From NCBI RefSeq assembly GCF_056712565.1, contig NZ_CM160072.1: 64,000 nt of DNA; one strand, 5' to 3'. Shown here in pieces: positions 4,972 to 40,622 of this stretch (position 1 is its first letter; each line of letters starts with the position of its first letter). Under the pieces are notes generated by a model, which was not told the origin of the DNA, ran no database searches, and saw only the letters and a program-made list of their open reading frames with translations. The translations under genes were made by a program, and so were the position numbers.

Positions 4972-4977
4972 ATGCTG

Positions 4978-5000: not shown

Positions 5001-5043
5001 TACTCTCTTGTCCCCCATTCAACAGCAGGTAACACCATTCGTT

Positions 5044-6459: not shown

Positions 6460-6511
6460 TAATTATTTTATGAATTAGGTAATTAAAGCAAACACTTATC
6501 AAGGAACACTA

Positions 6512-10473: not shown

Positions 10474-10571
10474 CCTGACTCCAGCCATCCCCTACTATTC
10501 TGTCCCTTTTTTCGCCCACTTTTACATCATCTCTTTTCTATAAGTTTTTGAAAATTAGTGTTTTTAACTGT

Positions 10572-10587
10572 TGGTACGGATTGTGCA
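10572..10587 (+). promoter_or_regulatory. candidate sigma-54 (-24/-12) promoter for the 2-oxoglutarate dehydrogenase operon
   Basis: TGGTACGGATTGTGCA: GG and GC separated by 10 nt, two mismatches to TGGCACG-N4-TTGC; 36 nt upstream of the E1 ATG; an NtrC-family activator gene is in the same island. Confidence 0.55.
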
Positions 10588-10622
10588 GTAATGCGGCTGT
10601 CTATGACCATCAGGAGAAAAAC

Positions 10623-13367
10623 ATGGAGAACATGACCTCGCCCGGCACGCTGCTTAGTGGAGATAACGCGACCTGGCTTGAAGAGTACTACCAGACCTGG
10701 TTGCGTACGCCGGAACAACTCCCGGAAGACTGGCGGCGTTTTTTTCTTTCACCTGAACTGACTGTCCAAAGCGTATCCGGTGATAACAACGTCAGCGGTG
10801 CGACGTTAAAAAAACAGGCTGCGGTAATACAACTGATCAATGCCTGGCGCACGCAGGGGCATCTGCGCGCAAAGCTTGATCCACTTGGTTTGAATCCCCC
10901 AGCTGACGTTCCCTCCCTCCAGCCTGGTTTTTGGGGATTAAGCGAAGAAGACTTGTTGCAGGAGTTTAGCGTCACCTTTGGCGCACACACCACGCAAATG
11001 CCACTTAAGCAACTGCTTAACCTGCTGGAGCAAGCCTGGGCCGGTAGCCAGGCTTATGAACTTGCTCATCTGGAAAATCGTGAAGAAATCAACTGGTTGT
11101 TATCACGGATTGAGAGCAGCAATGCGCCACAAGCTGATGCCCAAACCTGCATTGCCCGTTTTGAAAAACTGATGGCGGCAGAGACGTTAGAGCGTTATCT
11201 GCATACCCGTTATGTTGGGCAGAAACGGTTTTCTCTGGAAGGGGGCGAAAGTGCAATCCCGGCGCTCGATACGCTGACAAAACGCCTGCGTGCGCAAGGT
11301 GTGGAGGAAATGGTCATTGGCATGGCGCACCGGGGAAGACTTAATGTTCTGGTTAATCTGTTGAATAAAGACCCGGCACAGCTTTTTGCTGAGTTTGAAG
11401 GCAAGCAGACGATCGGCAGTGGTTCAGGCGATGTGAAATACCACATGGGGTATTCCAGCAATCTGGAAACACCTGCCGGTTCGCTGCATGTGGCGCTGGC
11501 GTATAACCCCTCACATCTGGAGATCGTGAATCCGGTGGTGCTGGGCCAGGTGCGAGCCAGGCAGGAACGCCGTGGTGAGGATGGTCAGGCAAAAGTGGTG
11601 GGCGTACTTATTCATGGGGATTCCGCGTTGGGCGGCCTCGGCGTCAACCAAACCACGTTTAACTTATCGCAGACTCAGGGCTACGGCACTGGCGGTACGC
11701 TACATCTGGTGATTAACAATCAGATTGGCTTCACCACTTCCCGCTTGCAGGATATGCGTTCTTCACGGTACTGCACCGATATTGCCAAAATGGTAGCGGC
11801 CCCAATTATCCACGTTAATGGCGATGACGTTGACGCTGTTTGCCAGGTAATGGAACTGGCGTGCGAATGGCGAGACACCTTCCGGCGCGACATCATCATC
11901 GATATTTGCTGCTTCCGTAAGCACGGACACAACGAAAGCGATGAGCCACGTCTTACCCAGCCACAAATGTATCAGGCAGTGGATGCTCACCCTGGTACGC
12001 TCGCCCGTTATGGTGAATCTCTTGCCCGCCGCGGCCTGTTAACTCAGGCGCAACAAGATGAGATGACGGCACGCTATCGCGACTGGCTGGATAGCTGCCA
12101 GAAACGTGAACCGCAGCCTCTCAAACCTGCAATTCACTCTTTTAGCGCTAACTGGTATGGGTTGACCAACCCTCACTGGAGCGCCCCGGTATCTACGGCA
12201 TTGCCTCGGCAAAAGCTGGCAGCGTATGGTGAAATCATTTCTACACTGCCACCCGATGTGGTCGCACATCCTACCATTAAACGGCAACTGGCGTTACGCC
12301 AGGATATGGCCGCAGGTACTCAGCCAATAGACTGGGGAATGGCTGAAATGCTGGCCTATGCATCGCTTGTGGATGCGGGTGTTGGTGTGCGTCTTTCTGG
12401 TGAAGACTCAGGGCGTGGCACGTTCAGTCATCGCCATGCAGTGGTACATCATCAAACTGAAGCCCGTCGTTATCTGCCGTTACAGCATATCCGCGCTGGT
12501 CAGGCATCTTTCGATGTTTATGATTCGGTGCTTAATGAAGAAGCGCTCTTAGCCTTTGAATATGGCTATTCAACGTCTGCGCCTCAGCAACTGGTTATTT
12601 GGGAAGCGCAGTTTGGTGACTTTGCCAACGGCGCTCAGGTTGCTATTGACCAGTTTATCTCGTCTGGCGAAACCAAGTGGGATCGCTATAGCGGTTTAAC
12701 CATTCTTCTGCCGCATGGCTATGACGGACAAGGGCCGGAGCACTCTTCTGCGCGTCCTGAGCGCTGGCTGCAACTGTGCGCAGAAAACAACATGCAGGTG
12801 GTGATGCCCAGTGAGTCAGCACAAATGTTCCATTTGCTGCGCGGTCAGGCATTACGCCCAATGCGCAAACCGTTAGTGATAATGATGAGTAAGCGTTTAC
12901 TTCGGTTTAAAGGCGCTATGAGCGAGCTTTCTGAATTCACTGATGGCGCTTATAAACCGGTAGTCACCGATCCGCAATTGCATCAGTCCCAGAAAGTTAA
13001 GCGCGTTATTTTGTGTAGCGGCCAGGTCTATTACGACGTACTGGAAGCCCGTAAGCAGCGTGAGTGTGAAGATGAGGTAGCGATTGTTCGCCTGGAGCAA
13101 CTCTACCCGTTCCCGGTCGCAGAACTGAATGATGTTCTGGCGAGTTGGCCGAACTGCTGCGAATGGATTTGGTTGCAGGAAGAGCCAGAAAACCAGGGCG
13201 CGTGGCGGCAGATTCGTCATGAGCTGGCGGCACTGAAAATTAACACTCCTTACTGGCAGTATGCAGGCCGCCCGGCAGTGGCAGCTCCGGCGACAGGGTA
13301 TGGGCGTGTACATAAACAACAAATCGACGAATTTCTTGCTGCTGCGTTTGCAGATATTCAGCCATGA
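10623..13367 (+). CDS. 2-oxoglutarate dehydrogenase E1 component paralog (SucA-like)
   Basis: ORF-track ORF 10548-13367 (TTG) trimmed to ATG 10623 with AGGAGA SD; ThDP region HGDSALGGLGVNQTTFNLSQTQGYGTGGTLHLVINNQIGFTTS parallels SucA. Confidence 0.9.
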   Translation: MENMTSPGTLLSGDNATWLEEYYQTWLRTPEQLPEDWRRFFLSPELTVQSVSGDNNVSGATLKKQAAVIQLINAWRTQGHLRAKLDPLGLNPPADVPSLQPGFWGLSEEDLLQEFSVTFGAHTTQMPLKQLLNLLEQAWAGSQAYELAHLENREEINWLLSRIESSNAPQADAQTCIARFEKLMAAETLERYLHTRYVGQKRFSLEGGESAIPALDTLTKRLRAQGVEEMVIGMAHRGRLNVLVNLLNKDPAQLFAEFEGKQTIGSGSGDVKYHMGYSSNLETPAGSLHVALAYNPSHLEIVNPVVLGQVRARQERRGEDGQAKVVGVLIHGDSALGGLGVNQTTFNLSQTQGYGTGGTLHLVINNQIGFTTSRLQDMRSSRYCTDIAKMVAAPIIHVNGDDVDAVCQVMELACEWRDTFRRDIIIDICCFRKHGHNESDEPRLTQPQMYQAVDAHPGTLARYGESLARRGLLTQAQQDEMTARYRDWLDSCQKREPQPLKPAIHSFSANWYGLTNPHWSAPVSTALPRQKLAAYGEIISTLPPDVVAHPTIKRQLALRQDMAAGTQPIDWGMAEMLAYASLVDAGVGVRLSGEDSGRGTFSHRHAVVHHQTEARRYLPLQHIRAGQASFDVYDSVLNEEALLAFEYGYSTSAPQQLVIWEAQFGDFANGAQVAIDQFISSGETKWDRYSGLTILLPHGYDGQGPEHSSARPERWLQLCAENNMQVVMPSESAQMFHLLRGQALRPMRKPLVIMMSKRLLRFKGAMSELSEFTDGAYKPVVTDPQLHQSQKVKRVILCSGQVYYDVLEARKQRECEDEVAIVRLEQLYPFPVAELNDVLASWPNCCEWIWLQEEPENQGAWRQIRHELAALKINTPYWQYAGRPAVAAPATGYGRVHKQQIDEFLAAAFADIQP

Positions 13368-13399
13368 AAGGCGCACAAAAATAATAAGGAGAACATTTT

Positions 13400-14554
13400 A
13401 TGATCGAAATTACTGTCCCTGTATTACCGGAATCTGTCACGGAAGGCACGCTGACAACCTGGTGTAAACAAGAAGGCGAGCACGTAAAACGCGATGATGT
13501 GATTGCCGAGCTGGAAACCGATAAAGTCATTCTGGAAATACCGGCCCCGCACGATGGCGTGTTAAGCAATATTATCGTCAGCGAAGGTAGCACGGTCACG
13601 TCCGCGCAACTGTTGGCGCATCTTAAGCCGCAAGCTGTCATAGAAGAAACCGTCACACCAGTCACCGAAACCCTGGCGATGCCTTCCGCACGGCTGGAGG
13701 CACAGCGTAGTGGTGTTGAACTTGCTGACGTTGCGGGGAGCGGGAGAAATGGACGTATCCTGAAAGAGGATGTACAGCGCGTTACTCCTGCACCAGTCAT
13801 TCAGCCTGAACGGGTGGCGGAGATCGCGCCAGCTAAACCCTTGACACCGGGTGCTCGTCAGGAACGTCGTGAGCCGATGTCGCGCTTACGTCAGCGAATT
13901 GCTGAGCGTCTGCTGGCTTCCCAACAAAATAACGCCATTCTTACCACATTCAACGAAGTAAACATGCAGAGCGTGATGGATTTACGCACCCGCTGGAAAG
14001 ATCGTTTTGCCGAGAAGCACGGCGTGAAGCTGGGCTTTATGTCCTTCTTTGTTAAGGCCGTTACCCGGGCGCTGGAGCGCTTCCCTGTAGTGAATGCCAG
14101 CGTTGATGGCAACGAGATTATCTGGCGTGATTATTGCGATATCGGCATTGCAGTGAGCAGCAACCGCGGCCTGGTAGTGCCTGTGTTACGCAATGCGCAA
14201 TCACTCTCTTTGGTGGAAATTGAACGGCAAATTGCCGAATACGCCACACAGGCACGCAATGGCAAATTGCCGCTGGAGGCGTTACAGGGCGGCACGTTCT
14301 CTATCACCAACGGCGGTACTTTTGGTTCGATGATGTCAACGCCAATCATTAACCCGCCGCAGTCGGCCATTCTTGGGATGCATGCCATCACGCCGCGCCC
14401 GGTCGCAGAAAACGGCCAGGTTGTTATTCGTCCCATGATGTACCTTGCTCTCAGCTATGACCATCGCATTATCGATGGTCAGGAAGCCGTGCAGACATTG
14501 GTGGCAATACGTGAGCTACTGGAATCACCGGAACAACTGTTGCTGGATCTTTAA
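13400..14554 (+). CDS. dihydrolipoyllysine-residue succinyltransferase E2 paralog (SucB-like)
   Basis: 384 aa; lipoyl-lysine motif [14 protein letters not shown]; catalytic [11 protein letters not shown]; AAGGAGA SD. Confidence 0.9.
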
Positions 14555-14565
14555 GGAGGGCGCCG

Positions 14566-15984
14566 ATGAGTACAATTTTTGATGTGGCAGTTATGGGGGG
14601 TGGGCCAGGTGGTTACGTAGCGGCACTGCGGGCTGCGCAGAATGGGCTTTCCGTAGTATGTATTGATGATGGTGTTAATGCACAGGGCGAACCTTCGCCG
14701 GGCGGTACGTGTCTCAATGTCGGCTGTATTCCGTCAAAATCGTTGCTGCAATCTTCCGAGCTGTACGCGCAAGTACAGCATGAGGCAAGCATTCATGGCG
14801 TTAACGTTGAAGGCGTATCTTTCAATGCTGCCGCGATGATTCAACGTAAAGATGCCATAGTAAGCCGCCTGACAATGGGCATCAGCTTGCTGTTTAAGAA
14901 AAATAAAGTGAAGCACTTGTGCGGCCTCGCAACGTTAGAACGTGCTCAGGATGAGATTTGGCAATTACGCGTAAACGATCAACACATTCACGCCCGTAAT
15001 GTAGTGATTGCAACAGGTTCTCAGCCGCGTCAGCTGCCTGGCGTTACCATTGATAATCAACAGATCCTCGACAATCGTGGCGCCCTGGCATTGAGCGAAG
15101 TGCCGCCGCGTCTCGGTGTGATCGGCGCTGGCGTGATTGGCCTTGAACTGGGGTCTGTGTGGAATCGGGTCGGTTCAGATGTCACGCTGCTGGAGATGGC
15201 GCCAACGTTCTTGCCTGCACTGGAAGCTCGCCTGTCGAACGAAGTCCGTAAAGCAATGATTGCCAGTGGGATGAAAATGCAACTGGCAGTAGAGATTGAG
15301 GCTATTGAACAACGGGATGACGGTGTGCATGTGCGCTGGCGGCAGGGTGAGAAGCGAGAAGAAAGCCGCTTCGATAAATTAATTCTTGCCATTGGACGTG
15401 TACCGCGACTTTCTGGTGTCGATCTCGTGCAACTCGGTCTTGAAGCCGATAACCGTGGCGGTATTGCCGTCGATAACTTATGCCGTACCGGGAAAGCCGG
15501 GCTGTGGGCAATTGGTGATGTCGTGCGAGGGCCGATGCTGGCGCATAAAGCGATGGCTGAAGGTGTGGTGGTTGCGGATCAAATTGCCGGACTGGCGGTA
15601 GAGCCGATTAATTTTGCGCTGATCCCTTCGGTGATTTACACCCAACCGGAAGTTGCGTGGGTAGGGGAAAACGAGGCCTCACTGAAAGCCGCTGGCAGAG
15701 TCTTTAACAAAGGAAATTCTCTGTTTGCCGGTAACGGTCGCGCCTTAGCATTAGGCCAGGAAGGTGGGCGTTGCACGTTATACAGCGATAAACACACTGA
15801 CCGCGTACTTGGCGGAGCGATTGTTGGCCCGCAGGCATCGGAGCTGATCAATGAAATTGCGCTGGCGATGACTTTTAGCGCCTCTGGCGAGGATATTGCC
15901 TGTGCGATCCATGCGCATCCGACCTTAAGCGAAGTCATCCACGAAGCAGCAATGGCCTTGAATAATAAAGCATTACACGGATAA
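14566..15984 (+). CDS. dihydrolipoyl dehydrogenase E3 paralog (Lpd-like)
   Basis: 472 aa; FAD fold GGGPGGYVAALRAAQ; redox-active disulfide CLNVGCIPSK. Confidence 0.9.
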   Translation: MSTIFDVAVMGGGPGGYVAALRAAQNGLSVVCIDDGVNAQGEPSPGGTCLNVGCIPSKSLLQSSELYAQVQHEASIHGVNVEGVSFNAAAMIQRKDAIVSRLTMGISLLFKKNKVKHLCGLATLERAQDEIWQLRVNDQHIHARNVVIATGSQPRQLPGVTIDNQQILDNRGALALSEVPPRLGVIGAGVIGLELGSVWNRVGSDVTLLEMAPTFLPALEARLSNEVRKAMIASGMKMQLAVEIEAIEQRDDGVHVRWRQGEKREESRFDKLILAIGRVPRLSGVDLVQLGLEADNRGGIAVDNLCRTGKAGLWAIGDVVRGPMLAHKAMAEGVVVADQIAGLAVEPINFALIPSVIYTQPEVAWVGENEASLKAAGRVFNKGNSLFAGNGRALALGQEGGRCTLYSDKHTDRVLGGAIVGPQASELINEIALAMTFSASGEDIACAIHAHPTLSEVIHEAAMALNNKALHG

Positions 15985-16005
15985 CACATACCACTGAGGG
16001 AATAT

Positions 16006-17175
16006 ATGAATTTACATGAGTATCAGGCCAAATCGTTACTGGCTGGCATGGGGATGCCGTGTCCAAAAGAGATAGCCATCCAACAGATTTCGCAACTGGC
16101 AGATGCCTGGCAACATATTGCTTGCCCGAGTAAAGGCGCGGTACTTAAAGCGCAGGTACATGCTGGTGGGCGCGGTAAAGCTGGCGGCGTAAAAGTGCTT
16201 AAGCAGCTGCCGGAAGCACAGGCTTTTGTACAGCAAATGTTGGGATCGCAACTGGTGACTTATCAGACCGGGCCAGAAGGGCAGTATGTCAGCAGTATTT
16301 TGCTGTGCGAAAACATCTATCCGGTACGCCAGGAACTCTATTTTGGCATGGTGGTGGATCGTGAAAGCCAGCGGGTCACGTTTATTGTCAGCCCGGAAGG
16401 TGGTGTGGAAATTGAAAAAGTCGCCCATGAGACACCGGAGAAAATCAGCAGTGTCAGCATTGATCCACTGACAGGCGTGCAGCCTTGCCATATCCGCGAA
16501 ATGTTTGCTGTTCTGCAACTGGAACACGGGCTATTTGCTACCTTTAGTCGCCTGGTTAATCAGGCGTGGAAAGCCTTTAACGAACTGGATTTCGCCCTGC
16601 TGGAAATTAACCCTCTGGTGTTGCGGGAAACGGGCGAATTTATGTGTGCAGACGCGAAAGTATCGCTGGATGATAACGCGCTGTATCGTCACCCGGAACT
16701 CCAGGTGCTACGTGATGAAACCCAGGAAGATCCACGCGAAAGCCAGGCAGCGAAGCTTGATCTTAATTATGTCTCGCTGGACGGAAATATCGGCTGCATG
16801 GTCAATGGTGCAGGGCTGGCTATGGCAACCATGGACATCATCAAGCTATACGGTGAACAACCCGCAAACTTCCTGGATGTTGGCGGTGGCGCAACCCAGG
16901 AGCGCGTCAGTGAAGCCTTTCGGCTGATTGTTTCCGACAGCAAAGTGAAAGCCATTCTGGTTAATATTTTTGGTGGGATTGTCCGTTGCGACATGATCGC
17001 CAGAGCCATTATTCATGCTCTGAATGAGGCCCGTATCACCCTGCCTGTCGTGGTGCGTCTCTCCGGTAATAACGCTGCCGAAGGGCAGCGGTTACTGGCA
17101 GAAAGTGGCCTGACGGTGGAAGCCGTCAATTCTCTGGATGATGCCGCTAAACGCATCATTGCGTTACTGAATTAA
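16006..17175 (+). CDS. succinyl-CoA synthetase beta subunit paralog (SucC-like)
   Basis: 389 aa; N-terminus MNLHEYQAKSLLAGMGMP typical of the ATP-grasp SucC family. Confidence 0.9.
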   Translation: MNLHEYQAKSLLAGMGMPCPKEIAIQQISQLADAWQHIACPSKGAVLKAQVHAGGRGKAGGVKVLKQLPEAQAFVQQMLGSQLVTYQTGPEGQYVSSILLCENIYPVRQELYFGMVVDRESQRVTFIVSPEGGVEIEKVAHETPEKISSVSIDPLTGVQPCHIREMFAVLQLEHGLFATFSRLVNQAWKAFNELDFALLEINPLVLRETGEFMCADAKVSLDDNALYRHPELQVLRDETQEDPRESQAAKLDLNYVSLDGNIGCMVNGAGLAMATMDIIKLYGEQPANFLDVGGGATQERVSEAFRLIVSDSKVKAILVNIFGGIVRCDMIARAIIHALNEARITLPVVVRLSGNNAAEGQRLLAESGLTVEAVNSLDDAAKRIIALLN

Positions 17176-17187
17176 CAGGAGGTTAAG

Positions 17188-18060
17188 ATGAGCGTTTTGA
17201 TCAACAAACACACGCGGGTACTGGTGCAGGGCATTACCGGCAAAAACGGCACATTTCATACAGAGCAGGCTATTGCGTATGGCACGCAGATTGTGGGTGG
17301 AGTGACGCCAGGTAAGGGCGGGCAACGGCATCTGGATCGCCCGGTTTTTGATTCAATGAAAGAAGCGATGCGACAAACTGAGGCTGATGCCAGCGTGATT
17401 TATGTGCCTGCACCGTTTGTGCTGGATTCTGTTGTTGAGGCTATTGAAGCTGGCGTCAAATTGGTTGTGGTGATCACTGAAGGTGTACCGACACTGGATA
17501 TGGTGAAAGTTCGTCGGCTGCTTGACTGCCACCCGGATGTGCGGCTGATTGGGCCAAACTGCCCAGGAGTTATCACGCCGGGCGAGTGCAAAATCGGGAT
17601 TATGCCTGGTGAAATCCACCGCCCAGGGCGTATTGGGATTGTTTCCCGCTCCGGTACATTAACCTACGAAGCTGTAGCGCAAACCACGGCGCTGGGACTT
17701 GGGCAATCCACCTGTATTGGTATTGGCGGCGATCCGGTTCCGGGGACTAACTTTATTGATGCGCTGCGTTTATTCGAAAATGATCCGCAAACAGACGCGG
17801 TAATTATGATCGGTGAAATTGGTGGTAATGCGGAAGAACGGGCTGCGGAATTTATTCGTCATGAAATGAATAAACCGGTCGTAGGTTATATTGCCGGTGT
17901 TACTGCACCAAAAGGAAAACGCATGGGGCACGCCGGAGCCATTATTTCTGGCGGTAGCGGCAGTGCAGAGGATAAATTCCGTGCGTTCGATAAAGCAGGC
18001 ATGGCATGGACAAGAAACCCGGCGTTGCTTGGCGAAACGTTATGGAATGTTATTAAGTAA
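17188..18060 (+). CDS. succinyl-CoA synthetase alpha subunit paralog (SucD-like)
   Basis: 290 aa; CoA-binding N-terminus [14 protein letters not shown]; phosphohistidine region [17 protein letters not shown]. Confidence 0.9.
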
Positions 18061-18078
18061 TCCATAAATGAATATCAA

Positions 18079-18102
18079 GGGAGCATATCGCTCCCTTTTT
18101 TT
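18079..18102 (+). terminator. rho-independent terminator ending the dehydrogenase/synthetase operon
   Basis: GGGAGC-ATATC-GCTCCC followed by an 8-T run, 19 nt after the sucD-like stop. Confidence 0.65.
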
Positions 18103-18215
18103 ATCTGTGTGGTAAGGGAATCATCTTTTAATAACTGTGCGGAAAACCGCGCATAAAATAAAAAGGATAAATAGCTAACTCATTAAATAACAAAGCGTTA
18201 TTAAAAAATTAAAGA

Positions 18216-18231
18216 TGGCATAGCTCCTGCA
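18216..18231 (+). promoter_or_regulatory. candidate sigma-54 (-24/-12) promoter for the transporter / Ldh_2 operon
   Basis: TGGCATAGCTCCTGCA: GG-N10-GC, close to consensus; about 40 nt upstream of ATG 18272. Confidence 0.6.
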
Positions 18232-18271
18232 ATAGCCAGGCAGGTTTTTTATTTTTCACAATGAGGTGAAT

Positions 18272-19771
18272 ATGTCATCAATATCCCATGGCGCACCACA
18301 AAAGCGTCGAATTATCCCTAATCCCGGCCTGTGGTTGGCGATCATTGCCGGAATTATTATTACCCTTCTGCCACTGGGCGATACCTTGCCCGTCGCCGGA
18401 CAAAATATGATCGCCATTCTGGTGTTTGCCATTATTGTCTGGATCAGCGAAGCGATGGATTACACCGCCAGTGCAATTGTTATTTCCGCACTGATTATCT
18501 TTATGGTTGGTTTTGCCCCGGATATGAATCACCCGGACACGATCCTTGGCACCGCGAAAGCGCTGAAAATGACTCTGTCGGGTTTTTCTAATTCTGCTCT
18601 GGCGCTGGTGGCAGCAGCAATGTTTATCGCGGCGGCAATGACCATTACCGGGCTGGATAAACGCATTGCGCTGTTTACTATGTCGAAAATAGGTGCCAGC
18701 AGCCGCAGCATTATTATCGGTGCCATTGTGGTGACCATCGTCCTGAGCCTGGTTGTACCCAGTGCCACTGCCCGTACGGCTTGCGTGGTGCCGATTATGA
18801 TGGGGGTCATTGCGGCATTTAAGGTGGATAAACATTCACGTTTAGCGGCGTCAATGATGATTGTTATCGCCCAGGCGACCAGTATCTGGAACGTTGGTAT
18901 TCAAACTTCGGCGGCGCAAAACCTGCTTTCTATCGGTTTTATCAATAAAACTTTCGGCGCCGGGCATTCTGTCAGCTGGCTTGACTGGCTGTTAGCGGGC
19001 GCGCCCTGGAGCCTCACCATGTCGGTGATCCTCTATTTCCTCGCACGTAAATTGTTGCCGCCAGAAACGGAAGCTGTTGAAGGGGGGAGCGAGGCCATTA
19101 AAAAAGCACTCGCAGAGTTAGGGCCAACCACCGGTAAAGAAAAACGCTTGATCGGTATTTCGCTATTGTTACTGCTCTTTTGGTCTACTGGCGGAAAATT
19201 ACACAGTATTGATACCACCTCTGTCACCCTTGCCGGACTGGCGATTATGTTGCTGCCAGGCATCGGTGTAATGAGCTGGAAAGAGGTCGAAAAACGTGTG
19301 CAGTGGGGCACGTTGCTGATGTTTGGTATTGGTATCAGCCTGGGGTCCACGCTGCTTGATACGCAGGCAGCTTCATGGATGGCGAACTATGTGGTGAAAG
19401 GTTTTGGTCTTGATGGCTTGCCATCATTAGCCATCTTCGCGATTCTCGCCGCTTTCTTGATAATTATTCACCTGGGGTTTGCCAGTGCCACTGCGCTAAC
19501 TGCCGCATTGCTGCCCATCCTGATTAGCCTGTTAAGCAGTCTGCCGCCAGAACTCGGCGTTAACCCGGTCGGCATGACCATTCTGCTCGCCTTCAGTGTC
19601 AGTTTTGGCTTCATCCTGCCGATTAACGCGCCACAAAATATGGTGTGTATGGGTACGGATACCTTCACGCCACGCCAGTTTACCCGTGTGGGACTGTACC
19701 TGACGGTAATCGGCTACCTGTTGTTGCTACTGTTTGCCGCCACCTGGTGGAAAATTTTAGGTCTAATGTGA
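18272..19771 (+). CDS. anion permease (DASS/CitT-like ion-transporter superfamily), probable 2-oxoglutarate/dicarboxylate uptake
   Basis: ORF-track ORF 18266-19771 (GTG) trimmed to ATG 18272; polytopic hydrophobic 499-aa protein; island context. Confidence 0.75.
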   Translation: MSSISHGAPQKRRIIPNPGLWLAIIAGIIITLLPLGDTLPVAGQNMIAILVFAIIVWISEAMDYTASAIVISALIIFMVGFAPDMNHPDTILGTAKALKMTLSGFSNSALALVAAAMFIAAAMTITGLDKRIALFTMSKIGASSRSIIIGAIVVTIVLSLVVPSATARTACVVPIMMGVIAAFKVDKHSRLAASMMIVIAQATSIWNVGIQTSAAQNLLSIGFINKTFGAGHSVSWLDWLLAGAPWSLTMSVILYFLARKLLPPETEAVEGGSEAIKKALAELGPTTGKEKRLIGISLLLLLFWSTGGKLHSIDTTSVTLAGLAIMLLPGIGVMSWKEVEKRVQWGTLLMFGIGISLGSTLLDTQAASWMANYVVKGFGLDGLPSLAIFAILAAFLIIIHLGFASATALTAALLPILISLLSSLPPELGVNPVGMTILLAFSVSFGFILPINAPQNMVCMGTDTFTPRQFTRVGLYLTVIGYLLLLLFAATWWKILGLM

Positions 19772-19782
19772 GGAAACCAACG

Positions 19783-20856
19783 ATGTCATTACAAATTGCT
19801 GTTGAAAAAGTGCGTTGGTTAGCTGCCGGGCTGCTGGAACTTAATGGCTGTGATGCCGATATCGCTCAGGATGTGGCGGAACATATGATTGAAGCGGAAC
19901 GTTATGGCTTTGCCAGCCACGGCGTCACGCTGCTACCGAAATATCTGGAAAATATCGCTCGTGGCGATGTAACCGCGAATGCCCGCCCGGAATGCTTAAC
20001 AAGTGAAGGTAATTTACAACGTTTTCATGCCCACAATGGCTTTGGTCAACACGCCGGAAAAGTGGCGGTAAATGCTGCCATCGAACAAGCAAAACACCGC
20101 GGTTTTTGCCTGTTAACGTTGTGCCATGCGCATCATTTAGGGCGTATGGGGCATTACGGGCAAATGGTTGCTGATCAAGGCCTGGCGATGCTGGCCATGA
20201 GTAACGTCACCGGGCGTCCGGCACTGGTCGCCCCGTGGGGCGGTGCGGAACCGCGTATGACCACTAACCCTTTCTGCTTTGCCTGGCCGTTCAGTGATGG
20301 GCGTCCGCCGATTCTGGTTGATTTTGCCACCAGTAGCATGGCGCTAAATAAAGCACGGGTAATGTCGTCCACCGGGAAGCAGGCCGCGCCGGGACAATTG
20401 ATCGATGCACAGGGGAATCCAAGCAATGATCCTGGGGTGTTATTCAGCAATCCTCCAGGGGCGTTACTGCCATTTGGTGAGCATAAAGGATTTGGCCTGG
20501 CACTGATGATTGAAATGATGGCGGGGATCTTATCTGGTGGTGACACGATCGCCGAAGATCATCAGACGGATGGATCTGCGCATAATCATCTTTTTGCGTT
20601 GATTATCGATCCTGATCAATTCACCGATCTGGCAGGGGAGAAAGGGCAGTTCTTTGCGGATTATCTGTTAGCTACGCAGCCTCAACCTGGCGGCAATCCG
20701 GTGATTTACCCCGGTATGCCAGAAGCTGCCAACCGGGAACGCAATGCGAAGATGATTACGATCCCGGTATCATTCTGGTCCTGGATAGTTGAACATTACG
20801 CCCGCAAAGGTATCGATTTGGGGTTACATCCTCAGGAATCAGCATTAGCTGGATGA
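19783..20856 (+). CDS. Ldh_2-family (malate/L-lactate dehydrogenase 2 type) 2-hydroxyacid/2-oxoacid oxidoreductase
   Basis: ORF-track ORF 19645-20856 trimmed to ATG 19783 (GAGGAAA SD; the upstream extension would overlap the transporter gene); 357 aa. Confidence 0.7.
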   Translation: MSLQIAVEKVRWLAAGLLELNGCDADIAQDVAEHMIEAERYGFASHGVTLLPKYLENIARGDVTANARPECLTSEGNLQRFHAHNGFGQHAGKVAVNAAIEQAKHRGFCLLTLCHAHHLGRMGHYGQMVADQGLAMLAMSNVTGRPALVAPWGGAEPRMTTNPFCFAWPFSDGRPPILVDFATSSMALNKARVMSSTGKQAAPGQLIDAQGNPSNDPGVLFSNPPGALLPFGEHKGFGLALMIEMMAGILSGGDTIAEDHQTDGSAHNHLFALIIDPDQFTDLAGEKGQFFADYLLATQPQPGGNPVIYPGMPEAANRERNAKMITIPVSFWSWIVEHYARKGIDLGLHPQESALAG

Positions 20857-22203
20857 TTCTGGTCGATAAACTTGCGGTTGAATCTGATGTTTGTTGAGTT
20901 TGTCATATAAAGTCTTGCGCGGCAGCTGTAATAGCCGCGCTGTCAAACTGACTTGGCCTTCCGTTTGTCGCAGCATATCTTCGATTAACTTTTTCTCGAA
21001 AGCATCAATGCAGGCGGTAAGGCCACTCTCTTCTTGCTGAGTCATTGGCACTGGCTGGTGGTGGGTCAGTAAACCGAGAACAAAACGCTCTGCATTGTGT
21101 TTAAGTTCACGTACATTGCCAGGCCAACTTTGTGATTGCAACCAGGCCAGTAACATGGGAGAAATATCAGGCAGAGGACGATTATATTTTTGTGCCGCCT
21201 GACTGGCGAACCAGTAAAACAGTTCAGGGATATCTTCTCGTCGCTGGCGTAGAGGTGGAATATTCAAGCTAACCACATTCAGACGATAATAGAGATCGAG
21301 ACGAAACAGATGTTCTTCGCTGCGACGCAGTAAATCTTCCTTGGTCGCTGCAATAACACGGCAATTCACCGGAATTAATTGATTGGCACCTAATCGTTCA
21401 ATGGTTCTTTCCTGCAATACACGTAGCAGTTTTACCTGCATTCCTGATGGCATTCCCTCTATTTCATCGAGAAATAACGTACCACCATTTGCATGTTCAA
21501 TTTTTCCAATACGCTTTTTAACCGCACCGGTAAATGCGCCCGCCTCATGACCAAATATTTCGCTTTCAAACAACGTTTCTGGTAAGCCTGCACAGTTTAA
21601 GGCAACAAACTGCCCCTGACGGCGGGTACTCCAGTGATGCAGCATTCTGGCGACGACTTCTTTACCACAACCTGTTTCACCATAAATAAGGACATCGGCA
21701 CCGGTATCTGCGACATTAAGGATCATTTTACGCAGTTGTTGCATCTGCGGACTACGACCAATCAGCACCGGGCCATTTTCCTGTTGCAGATTCGCCAGTA
21801 ATTGCTGATTTTCTAAAACCAATCGCCGTTTTTCTACCGCTCTGGCAATAATACTCAATAATTTATCTGAGCTACTTGGTTTCTCAATGAAATCGAATGC
21901 ACCATTACGCATGGCATCCACCGCCATTTCCACGTCACCGTGTCCGGTAATTAAAATAACCGGAATTTTGCTATCCATTTCGTTGATGTAACTGAGGAGC
22001 TCTAGTCCTGATATTCCAGGTAACCTGACATCGGTCAGTATAATAATGTTGGCTTGACTTTGAATAAGGGGAATACTGTGTTCTGCATCGCAACAGGAAA
22101 TAACACGATAACCAGCCAGCGTGAGCGTTTGTTCACAGGCAAAACGTACATCGTCACTATCCTCAATATAAACTATAGTAATTTCACTGGATTTATTATT
22201 CAT
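20845..22203 (-). CDS. kguR: sigma-54-dependent response regulator (NtrC family); matches KguR of the alpha-ketoglutarate utilization island
   Basis: 452 aa; receiver domain (IILTDVRLPG); AAA+ Walker A GETGCGKE; GAFTGA motif; C-terminal HTH. Gene name recalled from the UPEC literature, not verified here. Confidence 0.85.
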   Translation of the reverse strand: MNNKSSEITIVYIEDSDDVRFACEQTLTLAGYRVISCCDAEHSIPLIQSQANIIILTDVRLPGISGLELLSYINEMDSKIPVILITGHGDVEMAVDAMRNGAFDFIEKPSSSDKLLSIIARAVEKRRLVLENQQLLANLQQENGPVLIGRSPQMQQLRKMILNVADTGADVLIYGETGCGKEVVARMLHHWSTRRQGQFVALNCAGLPETLFESEIFGHEAGAFTGAVKKRIGKIEHANGGTLFLDEIEGMPSGMQVKLLRVLQERTIERLGANQLIPVNCRVIAATKEDLLRRSEEHLFRLDLYYRLNVVSLNIPPLRQRREDIPELFYWFASQAAQKYNRPLPDISPMLLAWLQSQSWPGNVRELKHNAERFVLGLLTHHQPVPMTQQEESGLTACIDAFEKKLIEDMLRQTEGQVSLTARLLQLPRKTLYDKLNKHQIQPQVYRPESSS

Positions 22204-24016
22204 GTTCTTCTCCCCATTCAGGCCAGGTTAATGTCATTACTGCGCCGCCTTCAGGATGATTACTGGCGTGGAGTGCGCCGTTCGAATTTCGGACAATTTC
22301 GCTGACTATTGCCAGTCCCAACCCCATTCCTCTACGTTTAGTGGTAAAAAATGGTTCAAATATGCGATCGACAACTTCAGGTGCAAAACCGCCACCGCTG
22401 TCTTTAATGGTAATAATAACTTTGTTATTTGCCTGGCGAATGGCGATATCCAGTCGTTTGTAAGAGCTACCTTCCATAGAATCTAAGGCGTTGCTAATTA
22501 AATTACTGAATATCTGTTCAAGACCGAGCTCATCGCAATTGACAAATAACGGCATGGATGGGGCTTTTATTCGTCGCTCAATGTTATTTTTCTCCATGCT
22601 GTGATTAAGTAACGCCACGGCGCTATACATCACTTTGATGACATCGGCAGAACCTTTAGGTACGCGATGGCGCGAGGCAAATGCTTTAAGTTCGGAAATG
22701 AGCTGCGTCATCCGCTCAATCACTGAAATAATGTGTTTCAGATTCTGTTCAACCTGCGGATACATCTCTTTTTTTAGCATAGTACGCGCGTTATCAGTAA
22801 GTGCGTGAATGGCGGCTAACGGTTGATTTTGTTCATGGGCAATTTCGGTTGCCATCTGTCCAAGCGCCGCCAGTTTGCTGGACTCTGCCAGTTCACTACG
22901 CGTAATTTGTAATACTTGTTCAGCCTGACTGCGCTCTTTTATCTCCTGTATTAATTTTTGATTGATCAATTCCAGGGCAGATGTACGCTCTTTAACCTGT
23001 TTTTCTAATGTTTCATTCGCCAGTGTTAATAATTGTTGTGCATGAGATCGCATTCTCCAGTATTTAATAAATAACAAAAACAGCAGGTAAATAATTAGTG
23101 TAATGACTAACGAAATAGCCCATGACCAGTACAGGTTATCTAAGGGGACCATAATTGTCATTTTCCAGTTAAATTCTGGAATGGCTATTTGTTGCGTATA
23201 ATATTGCGGGAATAAACAGAGTTGTTCTTTTTTATCTTTCAGGAAAGTAAAATTGCTCACGGTATAACAGGGATAATAATCCGCCGGTAAAAGATTGTCG
23301 AGACTATATTGACGGGTAGATTGTAGTTTTTGTTTTGCCTGAACAGGTAACGGTTGCAGTGTTCGCATTCGCCATGGCGATTTTGAACTTAAAAATATAA
23401 TCCCATGTTCATCATTCACGATAATATTTTCAGGACCTTCGGCCCATGCTTTTTCAATTTCATTAAGACTTATTTTTACTACTACAACACCGACAATTTT
23501 TCCTTTATCTTTTATACTTGTAGAGAGGAAGAATCCCGGTGTATTTGTAGTGCTACCAATACCGTAAAAGCGTCCATTTAAGCCAGACATGGCGTGTTTA
23601 TAATAGGGGCGATAGCTATAATTTTGCCCTACATAGCTGCCGGGGTCCTGCCAGTTGCTAGAAGCGATGGCCTTACCTTGGGTATCCAGAATAAATATTG
23701 CTGCGGTTTTGAGTTGAGTATTGAAATGTGCAATTCGTTGATTGAGTTCGCTGGACGTCATATCGTCAGGCGTAATTACCGCCTGACGGATGATATGGTC
23801 TGTTGAGAGCATATAGGGTAAAACATAAAATTGCTCGATGGTGGAATATAATGTGGACTTATACATTTCAAGCCGCATTTTATCGGTACCGGACAAGGTA
23901 TTAAAACGCAAGTGCAAAAAAGCGATTGAAACCGCGAGCATGATAAGAAAAAGTGAAATGCTTGTAATGTGAAATCGCCATTTGTTCTTAAATATATAAT
24001 TCCACGATATTTTCAT
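22196..24016 (-). CDS. kguS: sensor histidine kinase (DctB-like, periplasmic sensing domain); matches KguS
   Basis: 606 aa; two TM segments flanking a roughly 270-aa periplasmic domain; H-box ATEIAHEQNQPLAAI; ATPase G-box DSGGGF; stop overlaps the kguR start by 8 nt. Confidence 0.85.
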   Translation of the reverse strand: MKISWNYIFKNKWRFHITSISLFLIMLAVSIAFLHLRFNTLSGTDKMRLEMYKSTLYSTIEQFYVLPYMLSTDHIIRQAVITPDDMTSSELNQRIAHFNTQLKTAAIFILDTQGKAIASSNWQDPGSYVGQNYSYRPYYKHAMSGLNGRFYGIGSTTNTPGFFLSTSIKDKGKIVGVVVVKISLNEIEKAWAEGPENIIVNDEHGIIFLSSKSPWRMRTLQPLPVQAKQKLQSTRQYSLDNLLPADYYPCYTVSNFTFLKDKKEQLCLFPQYYTQQIAIPEFNWKMTIMVPLDNLYWSWAISLVITLIIYLLFLLFIKYWRMRSHAQQLLTLANETLEKQVKERTSALELINQKLIQEIKERSQAEQVLQITRSELAESSKLAALGQMATEIAHEQNQPLAAIHALTDNARTMLKKEMYPQVEQNLKHIISVIERMTQLISELKAFASRHRVPKGSADVIKVMYSAVALLNHSMEKNNIERRIKAPSMPLFVNCDELGLEQIFSNLISNALDSMEGSSYKRLDIAIRQANNKVIITIKDSGGGFAPEVVDRIFEPFFTTKRRGMGLGLAIVSEIVRNSNGALHASNHPEGGAVMTLTWPEWGEEHE

Positions 24017-34857: not shown

Positions 34858-36507
34858 ATGGAAATCTTCTTCACCATACTGATAATGACCCTCGTGGTCT
34901 CGCTGTCCGGGGTGGTCACTCGTGTCATGCCCTTTCAGATCCCGCTTCCGCTTATGCAAATCGCCATCGGTGCGCTACTGGCGTGGCCGACGTTTGGTTT
35001 GCATGTGGAGTTTGATCCTGAACTCTTTTTAGTCTTGTTTATCCCGCCGTTGCTGTTCGCTGATGGCTGGAAAACGCCGACCCGTGAATTTCTCGAACAT
35101 GGGCGAGAGATTTTCGGCCTCGCGCTGGCGCTGGTGGTGGTCACCGTGGTCGGCATTGGCTTCCTTATTTACTGGGTGGTGCCGGGCATTCCGCTGATCC
35201 CCGCCTTTGCGCTGGCTGCGGTGCTTTCTCCGACCGATGCTGTAGCGCTCTCCGGGATTGTTGGCGAGGGGCGCATCCCGAAAAAAATCATGGGCATTTT
35301 GCAGGGCGAAGCGTTGATGAATGACGCCTCCGGCCTGGTGTCGTTGAAGTTTGCCGTGGCAGTGGCGATGGGGACAATGATCTTCACCGTCGGCGGTGCG
35401 ACGGTCGAATTTATGAAAGTGGCAATAGGCGGTATTCTCGCCGGTTTTGTGGTGAGCTGGCTGTATGGTCGCTCGCTGCGATTCCTCAGCCGCTGGGGCG
35501 GTGATGAACCCGCGACGCAGATCGTTCTGCTGTTCTTGCTGCCATTCGCTTCTTATCTGATTGCGGAACATATTGGCGTTTCCGGCATCCTCGCTGCGGT
35601 TGCCGCCGGGATGACCATCACCCGCTCCGGTGTGATGCGCCGTGCGCCGCTGGCAATGCGCCTGCGCGCAAACAGCACCTGGGCGATGCTGGAATTTGTC
35701 TTTAACGGCATGGTGTTCCTGCTGTTAGGTCTGCAGTTGCCGGGGATTCTGGAGACGTCGCTGATGGCGGCAGAAATCGACCCTAACGTCGAAATCTGGA
35801 TGCTGTTTACCGATATTATTCTGATATATGCGGCGCTGATGCTGGTCCGTTTCGGCTGGCTGTGGACGATGAAAAAGTTCAGCAACCGCTTCCTGAAGAA
35901 GAAGCCGATGGAGTTTGGTTCGTGGACTACACGAGAAATCCTGATCGCGTCTTTCGCCGGGGTGCGTGGGGCGATCACTCTGGCCGGTGTGCTCTCTATC
36001 CCGCTTCTCTTGCCGGATGGTAACGTCTTCCCTGCGCGCTATGAGTTGGTGTTCCTGGCGGCTGGCGTCATTCTCTTCTCATTGTTTGTCGGCGTGGTGA
36101 TGTTGCCTATTCTGCTACAACACATAGAAGTCGCGGACCATTCGCAACAATTGAAAGAGGAACGTATTGCACGAGCGGCAACGGCAGAAGTGGCGATTGT
36201 GGCGATCCAGAAAATGGAGGAGCGTCTGGCGGCGGATACCGAAGAGAATATCGATAACCAGCTGCTCACAGAGGTTAGTTCTCGCGTCATTGGTAACCTG
36301 CGTCGTCGCGCCGATGGACGTAATGATGTAGAAAGTTCAATCCTGGAAGAGAACCTGGAGCGTCGCTTCCGTCTGGCGGCATTGCGTTCTGAACGTGCTG
36401 AACTGTACCACCTGCGCGCCACGCGGGAGATCAGTAACGAAACGCTGCAAAAATTACTGCACGATCTCGATTTGCTTGAAGCGTTGCTGATTGAGGAAAA
36501 TCAGTAA
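34858..36507 (+). CDS. yjcE: Na+/H+ exchanger family protein (CPA1)
   Basis: 549 aa polytopic membrane protein; conserved position. Confidence 0.9.
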   Translation: MEIFFTILIMTLVVSLSGVVTRVMPFQIPLPLMQIAIGALLAWPTFGLHVEFDPELFLVLFIPPLLFADGWKTPTREFLEHGREIFGLALALVVVTVVGIGFLIYWVVPGIPLIPAFALAAVLSPTDAVALSGIVGEGRIPKKIMGILQGEALMNDASGLVSLKFAVAVAMGTMIFTVGGATVEFMKVAIGGILAGFVVSWLYGRSLRFLSRWGGDEPATQIVLLFLLPFASYLIAEHIGVSGILAAVAAGMTITRSGVMRRAPLAMRLRANSTWAMLEFVFNGMVFLLLGLQLPGILETSLMAAEIDPNVEIWMLFTDIILIYAALMLVRFGWLWTMKKFSNRFLKKKPMEFGSWTTREILIASFAGVRGAITLAGVLSIPLLLPDGNVFPARYELVFLAAGVILFSLFVGVVMLPILLQHIEVADHSQQLKEERIARAATAEVAIVAIQKMEERLAADTEENIDNQLLTEVSSRVIGNLRRRADGRNDVESSILEENLERRFRLAALRSERAELYHLRATREISNETLQKLLHDLDLLEALLIEENQ

Positions 36508-36514
36508 TCTGCAT

Positions 36515-36538
36515 GGTTGGCGGGCGAGCCCGCCAACC
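36515..36538. terminator. bidirectional stem-loop between yjcE and the convergent LysR-type gene
   Basis: GGTTGGCGGG-CGAG-CCCGCCAACC, perfect 10-bp stem. Confidence 0.55.
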
Positions 36539-36542
36539 CGAC

Positions 36543-37427
36543 TTACTCTGGCGTTAACCAGTATCCTTCACAACAGCTCAGCCACGCGTGGGCAGAGTGG
36601 GAAAGGTAAACGCCCTCACGCCAAATCATTCCTAATTTCCAGCTTAGTTCGCTTTCCAGCGGTAGCCATTTTAAGGTGTTTTTATCTAATCGCTGGCAAA
36701 TGGGTTCCGGCAATATGGCTATTCCGACACCGGCCTGAACCATCGCGGCGAGAAAATCCCATTGCCCGCTGCGAACTGCAATTCTCGGCTTAACGCCATG
36801 TTCATCGAATAACTTCATCAATTGCTTACTTAAGGCAAAATCTTCGTTATAGATAAGTAGAGGATGTTCCGCCAATGTCTCCGGTGAGACGGCATCACAT
36901 TCAAGCCATTTACCTGAATGTGGCGTCAGTACACATAGTGGATGACTAAACAGCGATAACGTTGTCAGGCCGCTTTCTTCTACTGGCAGGGCTGTCAGTG
37001 CCATATCCAGTTCACCGTTCATCACCGCTTGTTGTACCGTCAGACCACCAAACTCCGAAATTTTCAATTCTACGCCGGGGTAACGCTGGCGAAAAAGGCC
37101 AATCGGCCCGGCCATCAACATCCCAACCATCGGCGGGATTCCCAGCCGCAAAACGCCGGTTTTAAGCTGATTGATATCGCTAAGCTCAGCTTCCAGTTGC
37201 CGAAACTCAGCCAGTAAAGCCAGCCCGCGCTCAAATACGACGCGACCAGTATCAGTGAGAAGCAGCCGACGACCATCGCGGATCAACAATATACAGTTCA
37301 GCTCATCTTCGAGATTCTTCAGCATCTTGCTGATAGTTGGTTGGGTGACAAACAACTTCTCCGCTGCGCGGGTGAAGCTTTGCTGGCGCACGACTTCGAC
37401 AAAATAACGCAGCGTTCTGATATCCAT
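36543..37427 (-). CDS. LysR-type transcriptional regulator, divergent from the LrgA/LrgB-like pair
   Basis: 294 aa; N-terminal wHTH IRTLRYFVEVVRQQSFTRAAEKLFVTQPTISKMLKNLE; LTTR co-inducer domain. Confidence 0.85.
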   Translation of the reverse strand: MDIRTLRYFVEVVRQQSFTRAAEKLFVTQPTISKMLKNLEDELNCILLIRDGRRLLLTDTGRVVFERGLALLAEFRQLEAELSDINQLKTGVLRLGIPPMVGMLMAGPIGLFRQRYPGVELKISEFGGLTVQQAVMNGELDMALTALPVEESGLTTLSLFSHPLCVLTPHSGKWLECDAVSPETLAEHPLLIYNEDFALSKQLMKLFDEHGVKPRIAVRSGQWDFLAAMVQAGVGIAILPEPICQRLDKNTLKWLPLESELSWKLGMIWREGVYLSHSAHAWLSCCEGYWLTPE

Positions 37428-37530
37428 AACTATTCCCTTTGACTATACCTGCAATGATTTTAATTCATTTCAGTCAGGGGCGAGCGCTCTCTATACTTAC
37501 CATTCTGTTTTATTTTCAGGATATCCTCTC

Positions 37531-37941
37531 ATGCCCGTGGCGCTTCGCCGCATTACCCCTGCCGTAGTGCAATCTATCCAGGTATTTTTTCAGGTTGTGC
37601 TGTATGCAGGTTTATTTATTTTTGCGCAGTATCTCGTCTCCTGGCTGCATTTGCCGCTGCCTGCCAACCTGGTGGGGATGATCCTGATGCTGGCGCTGAT
37701 TGTTTGTCGCATTCTTCCTCTGCAATGGGTTCGAGCCGGGGCGCGTTGGCTATTGGCCGAAATGTTGCTGTTTTTTGTCCCTGCCGTGGTGGCTGTGGTG
37801 AACTATGCACAACTATTACTGGTGGATGGCTGGCGTATTTTTGCTGTGATCGCGCTGAGTACGGTGATGGTGCTGGGCACGACTGCCTGGGTAGTGGAAA
37901 AAGTCTATCGCTATGAAATGCGCAGGTTAAACCGTGGCTAA
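37531..37941 (+). CDS. CidA/LrgA-family small membrane protein (YohJ-like)
   Basis: 136 aa; four predicted TM helices; paired with the downstream LrgB-family gene. Confidence 0.8.
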   Translation: MPVALRRITPAVVQSIQVFFQVVLYAGLFIFAQYLVSWLHLPLPANLVGMILMLALIVCRILPLQWVRAGARWLLAEMLLFFVPAVVAVVNYAQLLLVDGWRIFAVIALSTVMVLGTTAWVVEKVYRYEMRRLNRG

Positions 37942-38623
37942 TTTTCAGCTAAGTATGCTCTGTCTGGCAATTACGCTAGTTATCTATTTTCTTAACAAAC
38001 GCCTTTATCGCCGCTTTCGTAAATTGCCATTGATGCCTCTGGTGCTGACGCCTACGCTACTGGTTATGCTGCTGGTTTTTGGCAATATTTCCTGGCAAAA
38101 CTATATTGGCGAAGCGCACGGGTTACTATGGCTATTAGGTCCGGCCACCATCGCCTTTGCGGTACCAGTGTATGACAATCGGGCGATCATTAAGCGTCAC
38201 TGGATGTCGTTGACGGCAGGCGTACTGACGGCAACGGTGGTGGCAGTGACCAGCTCAGTGTGGCTGGCGCGATTGTTTACCCTGCCAGATGAGATCCAGC
38301 GTAGCCTGGCGGTGCGTTCGGTCACTACGCCATTTGCTTTGGCAGCGAGCCAGTCGCTCGGCGGACAGCCTGATCTGGTGGCGCTGTTTGTGGTGGTCAC
38401 CGGTGTGTTTGGCATGGCGATTGGCGACGTGTTGTTTTTACGTCTCTCTATTCGCGAAGGGATGGCGAAAGGTGCTGGATTCGGCGCGGCATCTCATGGT
38501 GCCGGGACTGCGCGGTCATATGAACTGGGTCAACAAGAAGGCGTAGTTGCAAGCCTGGTCATGATGCTTTCAGGTGTATTGATGGTATTGGTTTCGCCGC
38601 TGGTGGCCAGGATGATGTTCTGA
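37934..38623 (+). CDS. CidB/LrgB-family membrane protein (YohK-like)
   Basis: 229 aa from GTG 37934 (alternative ATG at 37955); aligns with E. coli YohK as I recall it (GTASHALGTARCAELDYQEG vs GAASHGAGTARSYELGQQEG); overlaps the LrgA-like stop by 8 nt. Confidence 0.8.
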   Translation: MANFQLSMLCLAITLVIYFLNKRLYRRFRKLPLMPLVLTPTLLVMLLVFGNISWQNYIGEAHGLLWLLGPATIAFAVPVYDNRAIIKRHWMSLTAGVLTATVVAVTSSVWLARLFTLPDEIQRSLAVRSVTTPFALAASQSLGGQPDLVALFVVVTGVFGMAIGDVLFLRLSIREGMAKGAGFGAASHGAGTARSYELGQQEGVVASLVMMLSGVLMVLVSPLVARMMF

Positions 38624-38661
38624 AGAAATTCCCCGATCAAGCGACCGGGGAAGGGGAGAGA

Positions 38662-40622
<1,961 letters not shown>

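Follow-up and report, generated by a model that had tools for sequence, protein, structure and literature searches.

Here we describe a cassette of three genes in a 64,000-nucleotide (nt) stretch of DNA (the window; contig NZ_CM160072.1 of assembly GCF_056712565.1), which encodes a CidR-like LysR-type transcriptional regulator (LTTR) and, divergently from it, a pair of membrane proteins of the LrgA/CidA and LrgB/CidB families. The identity of the genes and their ancestral position are near-certain. The cassette is the ancestral occupant of the interval between yjcE and actP in Enterobacteriaceae and has been kept in one lineage of Escherichia coli that includes the B2 strains CFT073, LF82 and ATCC 11775, and yjcF, the gene found there in K-12, is a newcomer restricted to E. 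coli; in most other E. coli the cassette has been replaced by yjcF/espX5 or deleted. The most likely function of the cassette, to which we give a probability of about 0.55, is that of a metabolite-induced transporter of small carboxylates under its own CidR-like regulator.

The genes are already annotated by family and are present in 19% of complete E. coli genomes and in most Enterobacteriaceae, and this kind of system is known from Firmicutes and Pseudomonas aeruginosa. What is added here is a seemingly unstudied clade, a locus with three alleles of which the one in K-12 is derived, and a well-defined candidate operator.

Genes of the cassette

The three open reading frames (ORFs) and the 103-bp region between the divergent genes lie exactly where a preliminary description of this DNA had placed them (Table 1), and its reading of them as an LTTR gene divergent from overlapping LrgA- and LrgB-family genes agrees with the ORFs and with the Pfam hidden Markov model assignments. 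The regulator has the domains of an LTTR, with HTH_1 at residues 3-62 (5e-22) and LysR_substrate at residues 87-286 (2e-44). The LrgA protein belongs to PF03788 (9e-26, model positions 3-94 of 94), its hydropathy peaks falling into four regions, and the LrgB protein to PF04172 (5.5e-68, model positions 1-213 of 214). The GTG start of lrgB overlaps the stop of lrgA by 8 nt, from which translational coupling of the two genes is predicted. The operon lacks a third gene, as lrgB is followed at 38 nt by the convergent actP. Across the three-gene stretch the window does not differ from E. coli ATCC 11775, and for the genes in ATCC 11775 and CFT073 the RefSeq names are “LysR family transcriptional regulator”, “CidA/LrgA family protein” and “LrgB family protein”.

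Assignment below the level of the family was done with NCBIfam, where every equivalog or subfamily model for the LrgA protein scores under its cut-off: the best match is the “CidA/LrgA family holin-like” model NF002460 (80.7 bits, cut-off 112), and YohJ (54.3, cut-off 124) and the LrgA equivalog (47.2, cut-off 136) score lower. The LrgB protein gives 182 bits with TIGR00659, under the equivalog cut-off of 249.7, and therefore represents a distinct subfamily; the LrgB equivalog model gives 129 bits, which is lower than the generic model. A sequence search of solved structures returned none for LrgA or LrgB and only generic LTTRs for the regulator, with BenM as the best (1e-26). The Rfam search of positions 36300-38800 matched no RNA family.

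The ratios of nonsynonymous to synonymous substitution rates (dN/dS) against Salmonella, Citrobacter, Enterobacter and Klebsiella are 0.03-0.13 over all three genes, with 0.034-0.040 for the regulator and 0.06-0.13 for lrgA, and the three genes are therefore real and functional genes and not chance ORFs.

Table 1. Coordinates of the cassette and of associated features in the window
Feature	Position	Strand	Remarks
CidR-like LysR-type regulator gene	36543..37427	minus	294 amino acids, ATG start; from ORF, Pfam and NCBIfam
LrgA/CidA-family small membrane protein gene (lrgA)	37531..37941	plus	136 amino acids, about 4 hydrophobic segments
LrgB/CidB-family membrane protein gene (lrgB)	37934..38623	plus	229 amino acids, GTG start
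Divergent control region between regulator gene and lrgA	37428..37530		103 bp
Predicted regulator-binding box ATGATTTTAATTCAT	37454..37468		T-N11-A, dyad ATGA-N7-TCAT; from footprint
-10-like hexamer TATACT for lrgA	37492..37497	plus	inside the conserved CTCTATACT block; at least 95% conserved
G+C-rich hairpin GGTTGGCGGGC-GA-GCCCGCCAACC where yjcE and the regulator gene converge	36515..36538		read from sequence
Terminator-like hairpin where lrgB and actP converge, downstream of actP	38629..38652	minus	terminator scan
Segment varying between the cassette and yjcF alleles	36508..38627		2120 bp here; 1589 bp in K-12; about 80 bp in the empty allele

Position in Enterobacteriaceae and alleles within E. 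coli

The distribution of the cassette was surveyed by a tblastn census, which covered about 85 loci in about 80 species. The gene order ghxP-yjcE-LTTR (minus strand)-lrgA-lrgB is essentially invariant across the census, and the three genes come straight after yjcE in, among others, Salmonella, Citrobacter, Enterobacter, Klebsiella and Kluyvera. Orthologues of LrgB with 74-91% identity are found throughout Enterobacteriaceae and in some Erwiniaceae, those of the regulator, with 67-89% identity, are found at this position in about 80 species, and actP-yjcH-acs lies 31-170 nt beyond lrgB in 41 of the 77 loci. The identity of the cassette proteins declines in parallel with that of the flanking proteins, and in rough neighbour-joining trees the three nearest neighbours of E. 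coli (Citrobacter amalonaticus, Salmonella and C. werkmanii) are the same for cassette and flanks. Cluster members sampled with regard to other Escherichia species all bore the name E. coli.

The gene yjcF, by comparison, is missing from all non-E. coli loci examined, and a search of 5.8 billion proteins gave only eight clusters of its homologues, every named one being from E. coli. Because the order of the cassette is kept in about 80 species and yjcF occurs only in E. coli, the cassette is taken as ancestral and yjcF as the newcomer. The preliminary description was right in recalling that K-12 has yjcF at this site (b4066 in MG1655, where the three genes are not found), and its framing of the locus as a departure from K-12 has to be turned round. 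A strain-specific insertion or island was considered and rejected in favour of ancestral retention, the same site being occupied in about 80 species; there are no mobility genes, the junctions are clean and lie at gene ends, and the G+C content of the cassette is 0.47-0.58 against 0.52-0.58 in the flanks.

Within E. coli the alleles of the interval were counted over 5426 complete genomes, of which three alleles cover 5424. The cassette allele is carried by 1037 genomes (19%), including CFT073, LF82 and ATCC 11775; of the 1038 records matched, 1034 reach an identity of 99% or more and have the three ORFs annotated as intact. The yjcF allele is found in 4118 genomes, in which RefSeq often names the gene espX5, and 269 genomes have the empty allele, a gap of about 80 bp, among them E2348/69, IAI39 and CE10. 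The empty allele has the K-12-like hairpin after yjcE and a different 3′ end of yjcE, and its kinship is for this reason with the yjcF allele rather than the cassette allele. In BLASTN comparison the homology between the window and K-12 ends at the stop codon of yjcE (36507) and restarts at 38628, 5 nt beyond the stop of lrgB. The hairpin after yjcE in the window, a putative terminator, falls within the segment that differs from K-12; the one at the other end marks the right-hand limit of the variable segment, because K-12 has the same hairpin downstream of actP.

Some irregular records were also met with in these surveys. In many genomes RefSeq labels yjcF (positions 5784-7076 of the K-12 locus L002) as “espX5, T3SS effector pentapeptide repeat protein” (T3SS, type III secretion system), and IS1 insertions are seen within yjcF (H31, H36) or in its place (L009). 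In E. coli FP4 (L010, NZ_CP072686.1, positions 4733-5242) a deletion runs from inside yjcE to inside lrgB and leaves a chimeric ORF of 169 amino acids annotated as “LrgB family protein”. In another E. coli genome (L094, GCA_052424215.1, positions 5494-6717) the cassette is at the usual site, with no lrgA called and LrgB extended to 238 amino acids, probably through a frameshift in lrgA or an error of assembly there. Two of 1039 cassette matches are on records classed as plasmids and could be misassemblies or chromosome fragments. The E. coli cassette with 99-100% protein identity was found also in two metagenome-assembled genomes (MAGs), CALXDF010000205.1 (L011, “uncultured Oscillospiraceae MAG”) and DXKH01000064.1 (L012, “Citrobacter sp. 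MAG”), and these labels most likely reflect binning contamination. In other genera the junction between lrgB and actP is an insertion hot spot (L005-L008, L013, L016, L018, L020 and others), the inserted genes including a GFO_IDH_MocA oxidoreductase, a solute-binding protein and a glycoside hydrolase 38.

Kinship with CidR modules and LrgAB transporters

The best NCBIfam match of the regulator is CidR (NF047520, 286.2 bits, cut-off 415, model positions 1-288 of 292), and the next family reaches 157 bits. The same model is the best for the regulators of the Salmonella orthologue (L004) and of the distant modules L096, L098 (Pseudomonas) and L099 (Psychrobacter), with 216-282 bits, again under the cut-off. 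The divergent LTTR-lrgA-lrgB module recurs in Pseudomonas, in Psychrobacter and on an unassigned contig, with LrgB 40-48% identical and otherwise unrelated neighbours; the regulators of these distant modules are 30-42% identical to that of E. coli and CidR is their best model by 50-130 bits. Since the CidR model is the best by a wide margin (286 against 157 bits) and the distant modules have the same layout, the parallel with CidR-cidAB, which had been proposed earlier from the arrangement, is as judged from these comparisons homology of the whole module as well. The enterobacterial clade is then a proteobacterial sister group and not the CidR equivalog. Relatives without the regulator are seen in Aquabacterium (L100) and on an enterobacterial contig (L095, Logan SRR29828246). 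On the latter contig LrgB is 60% identical, the gene order is soxS-soxR-yjcE-lrgA-lrgB-yfaZ-acs without the LysR regulator or actP-yjcH, and lrgAB runs in the same direction as yjcE.

In Staphylococcus aureus CidR-cidABC a LysR-type regulator gene likewise adjoins a CidA/LrgA-family gene followed by a CidB/LrgB-family gene, and CidR responds to overflow metabolism, with pyruvate and acetic acid proposed as the cues (PMC9204165; PMC4462622). The system described here differs in that its host is Gram-negative, no alsSD regulon is known and no link with murein hydrolases is evident. The three-gene organisation is shared also by YwbI-YwbHG of Bacillus subtilis, a likeness drawn from the published description, where acetate induction of ywbHG depends on YwbI (PMC4462622). 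Five genes separate ywbI-ywbHG from ywcBA, whose homologues in E. coli are yjcH-actP (PMC4462622), so a link between the module and an acetate permease appears in two phyla, and it is missing in Pseudomonas and Psychrobacter. B. subtilis belongs to another phylum, however, and the role of its module has been studied only via biofilm timing. Among gammaproteobacteria, cidAB of P. aeruginosa (PA3432-PA3431) has a putative cidR upstream of cidA-cidB (PMC2654510) and has been studied only for cell death and biofilm dispersal. The Pseudomonas module examined here (L098), which is not equated with the PA3431 locus, has the divergent layout with LrgB 43% and the regulator 37% identical; at about 40% identity it stands apart also by its unrelated neighbours, without actP or acs.

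The nearest relatives within the same genome are YohJ and YohK, paralogues of the LrgA and LrgB families which are also translationally coupled. The possibility that the pair is only a displaced yohJK, which the preliminary description had held out, was rejected: the identity is only 34% and 35%, the scores are under the cut-offs (54.3 against 124 for NF002494, and 138.3 against 267 for NF007983), and a single copy of the true yohJK stands at its own locus (dusC-yohJK-cdd) in 5424 of the 5426 complete genomes. YohJK differs further in having no adjacent LysR regulator and in being nearly universal, against 19% for the cassette. It is a putative 3-hydroxypropionate exporter and is controlled by YieP (PMC7642389).

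Further relatives are the two-subunit LrgA + LrgB carboxylate transporters LrgAB/PftAB of B. subtilis, Streptococcus mutans and S. aureus. In these three species LrgAB imports pyruvate and both subunits are needed; CidAB influences excretion of both acetate and acetoin (PMC8805020), and LrgB has been proposed to confer substrate specificity (PMC8805020; PMC6790026). These systems are under LytSR/LytST two-component control and not under a LysR regulator, and their LrgA and LrgB equivalog models (47 and 129 bits) score under the CidA-type and generic models with the proteins studied here. The plastidic plant protein PLGG1 (AtLrgB) has an LrgB-family domain and, as cited in PMC8805020, carries glycolate and glycerate; it resembles the present system, by description, in this domain and in the transport of two- and three-carbon hydroxy acids, and it differs as a eukaryotic single polypeptide without regulation of the bacterial type.

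Control region, proposed function and alternatives

The control region was analyzed by a footprint of orthologous intergenic sequences, 79 distinct ones taken from about 80 species. Three elements are conserved: ATGA(T/G)TTTAATTCATTTC at 37454-37471, CTATACT at 37491-37497 and ACTAT at 37442-37446. The ATGATTTTAATTCAT box within the first of these is conserved to at least 95% at almost all positions. A T-N11-A dyad is the classic recognition motif of LysR proteins, and its place in a region shared by divergent transcripts is the arrangement expected of an LTTR; the regulator is predicted to bind this box. A near-identical ATTATTTTAATTCAT followed by ACTATG is found in the control region of module L096, whose regulator is only 42% identical. 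The window holds a single exact copy of ATGATTTTAATTCAT, looser matches being at chance level, and near actP or acs no further copies were found beyond chance-level matches with 3 mismatches. A CRP site at the dyad was considered and rejected, the spacing of the half-sites being 7 nt and not 6 as read from the sequence. The hexamer TATACT lies 33 nt upstream of the ATG of lrgA and may tentatively be taken as a plausible -10 element of its promoter.

The LrgB protein was also compared as a predicted structural model. Its fold is like those of carboxylate secondary transporters, followed by Na+/H+ antiporters and bile-acid symporters, and this prediction favours a transporter over a mere antiholin, as a property of the family and not of the locus. 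The substrates known for the family are pyruvate, acetate, glycolate/glycerate and 3-hydroxypropionate (PMC8805020; PMC7642389). The fold and the published work lend indirect support to a part in the flux of small organic acids, which the preliminary description had put forward as plausible but unproven and which is still unproven. In the mechanism that we propose, the regulator would bind the conserved ATGA-N7-TCAT box and, on sensing a small metabolic acid, would activate the coupled lrgA-lrgB operon; by analogy with CidR and YwbI the inducer may be pyruvate or acetate. LrgA and LrgB would then assemble as a two-subunit secondary transporter which moves a small monocarboxylate across the inner membrane. 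The binding of the regulator, the inducer, the substrate and the direction of transport are what we infer here, and we hold the chances that the cassette performs regulated carboxylate transport to be roughly even. A narrower version, in which the regulator senses acetate or pyruvate and LrgAB is an unrecognised transporter of overflow metabolites working together with the acetate scavenging of actP-yjcH-acs, is speculative and on present evidence unlikely.

Several observations weigh against the regulated transporter. The regulator scores under the CidR equivalog cut-off (286 against 415), cidC, the pyruvate:menaquinone oxidoreductase gene of the S. aureus operon, is missing from that of E. 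coli, and the fold match of LrgB points to a transporter and names no substrate. The scan of the control region for consensus sigma-70 promoters found nothing, which fits an activator-dependent promoter as well. LysR recognition sites are usually near -65, and here the centre of the box is at about -43 relative to the start predicted from TATACT, so the assignment of the lrgA promoter is uncertain. Extra genes of 0.7-4.7 kb separate lrgB from actP in 36 of the 77 loci and the actP neighbourhood is lost outside Enterobacterales; adjacency to actP is thus weak functional evidence. In E. coli the cassette is dispensable, being missing from 81% of complete genomes, and its copy there is on a long branch, the regulator and lrgB having a synonymous divergence (dS) of 1.4-2.3 and the flanking genes one of 0.7-1.05. 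The literature search found no experiment on this clade in any enterobacterium; that K-12 and about 80% of complete E. coli genomes lack the cassette probably explains this want of studies.

Control of cell death is the role first proposed for Cid/Lrg proteins in S. aureus and P. aeruginosa. By this account LrgA would form membrane lesions, LrgB would modulate them and the regulator would trigger lysis and the release of extracellular DNA in biofilms, which does not exclude transport. The account draws on a lysis-cassette assay in which CidA and LrgA of S. aureus act as holins (PMC8805020), on the changes in cell death, lysis timing and biofilm dispersal caused by cidAB/lrgAB deletions in P. 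aeruginosa (PMC2654510), and on the name “holin-like” of the best NCBIfam model on the LrgA side; the predicted fold of LrgB speaks for a transporter, and we consider a holin function here rather improbable. A variant of the carboxylate transporter is a detoxifying exporter of a toxic organic acid, redundant with YohJK, and not an importer of acetate or pyruvate. The putative export of 3-hydroxypropionate by the paralogue YohJK (PMC7642389; K-12 annotation) and the ability of B. subtilis LrgAB to export pyruvate as well (PMC8805020) point in this direction, and redundancy with yohJK, given its presence in 5424 of 5426 genomes, would explain the repeated loss of the cassette in E. coli. However, the identity to YohJK of only 34-35%, the cassette's own CidR-like regulator where yohJK is under YieP, and purifying selection across about 80 species also bearing yohJK-type genes, which argues against simple redundancy, make such an exporter doubtful, if worth keeping in mind.

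Two further explanations concern the history of the E. coli copy, whose dS and dN are about 1.5-2 times those of the flanking genes. This excess is not shared by Salmonella, Citrobacter and Enterobacter, among which the dS of cassette and flanks are alike (window compared with L004, L033 and L040), and the G+C content at third codon positions (GC3) is 0.52-0.58 in the cassette against 0.62-0.67 in the flanks. Together with the lack of other Escherichia species in the best 80 loci from the species-level scan, this would suit a horizontal islet, re-introduced at the homologous site of a B2-type lineage from another enterobacterium. The cassette GC3 is, however, near the average of the E. coli genome, which argues against a recent arrival; the closest possible donor is no nearer than 91% amino-acid and about 81% nucleotide identity, the cassette and flank trees give E. 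coli the same three nearest taxa, and at the junctions there are no mobility genes, tRNA or repeats, the boundaries coinciding with gene ends and shared terminators. A horizontal origin is on these grounds quite improbable. The long branch may stem from relaxed or faster evolution in a lineage that can do without the cassette, or from an old or introgressed allele. It has also to be asked if the cassette is a decaying remnant without function in E. coli, as its absence from 81% of complete genomes, the long branch, occasional deletions and one probable frameshift (L010, L094) might suggest. Against this stand the 1034 of 1038 records at least 99% identical with three intact annotated ORFs, the dN/dS of 0.03-0.13, and the operator-like box and -10 element, which are intact and agree with the family consensus, and we regard decay as hardly credible.

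The carriers of the cassette include model extraintestinal and commensal B2 strains (CFT073, LF82 and the type strain ATCC 11775), Salmonella and most clinically important Enterobacteriaceae. If the cassette does move pyruvate, acetate or glycolate, it would be a missing piece of small-acid transport in these organisms, and the three alleles (cassette, yjcF/espX5 and empty) would offer a clean natural experiment on its effects on fitness. If the narrower, actP-linked version with acetate or pyruvate sensing is true, retention of the module in B2-type extraintestinal and commensal E. coli, as against its replacement elsewhere by the effector-like yjcF/espX5, would be a lineage-defining metabolic difference overlooked by K-12-centred work. 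The predicted fold of LrgB has a bearing also on the long-standing choice between a holin and a transporter role for Cid/Lrg proteins, and favours transporters.

The window and CFT073 are collinear, with an identity of about 99%. At about 10500-24000 the window contains a second 2-oxoglutarate dehydrogenase (E1/E2/E3), sucCD, a DASS symporter, an Ldh-family oxidoreductase and a sigma-54-dependent regulator with its sensor kinase, which we take to be the KguS/KguR alpha-ketoglutarate utilisation island of uropathogenic E. coli.

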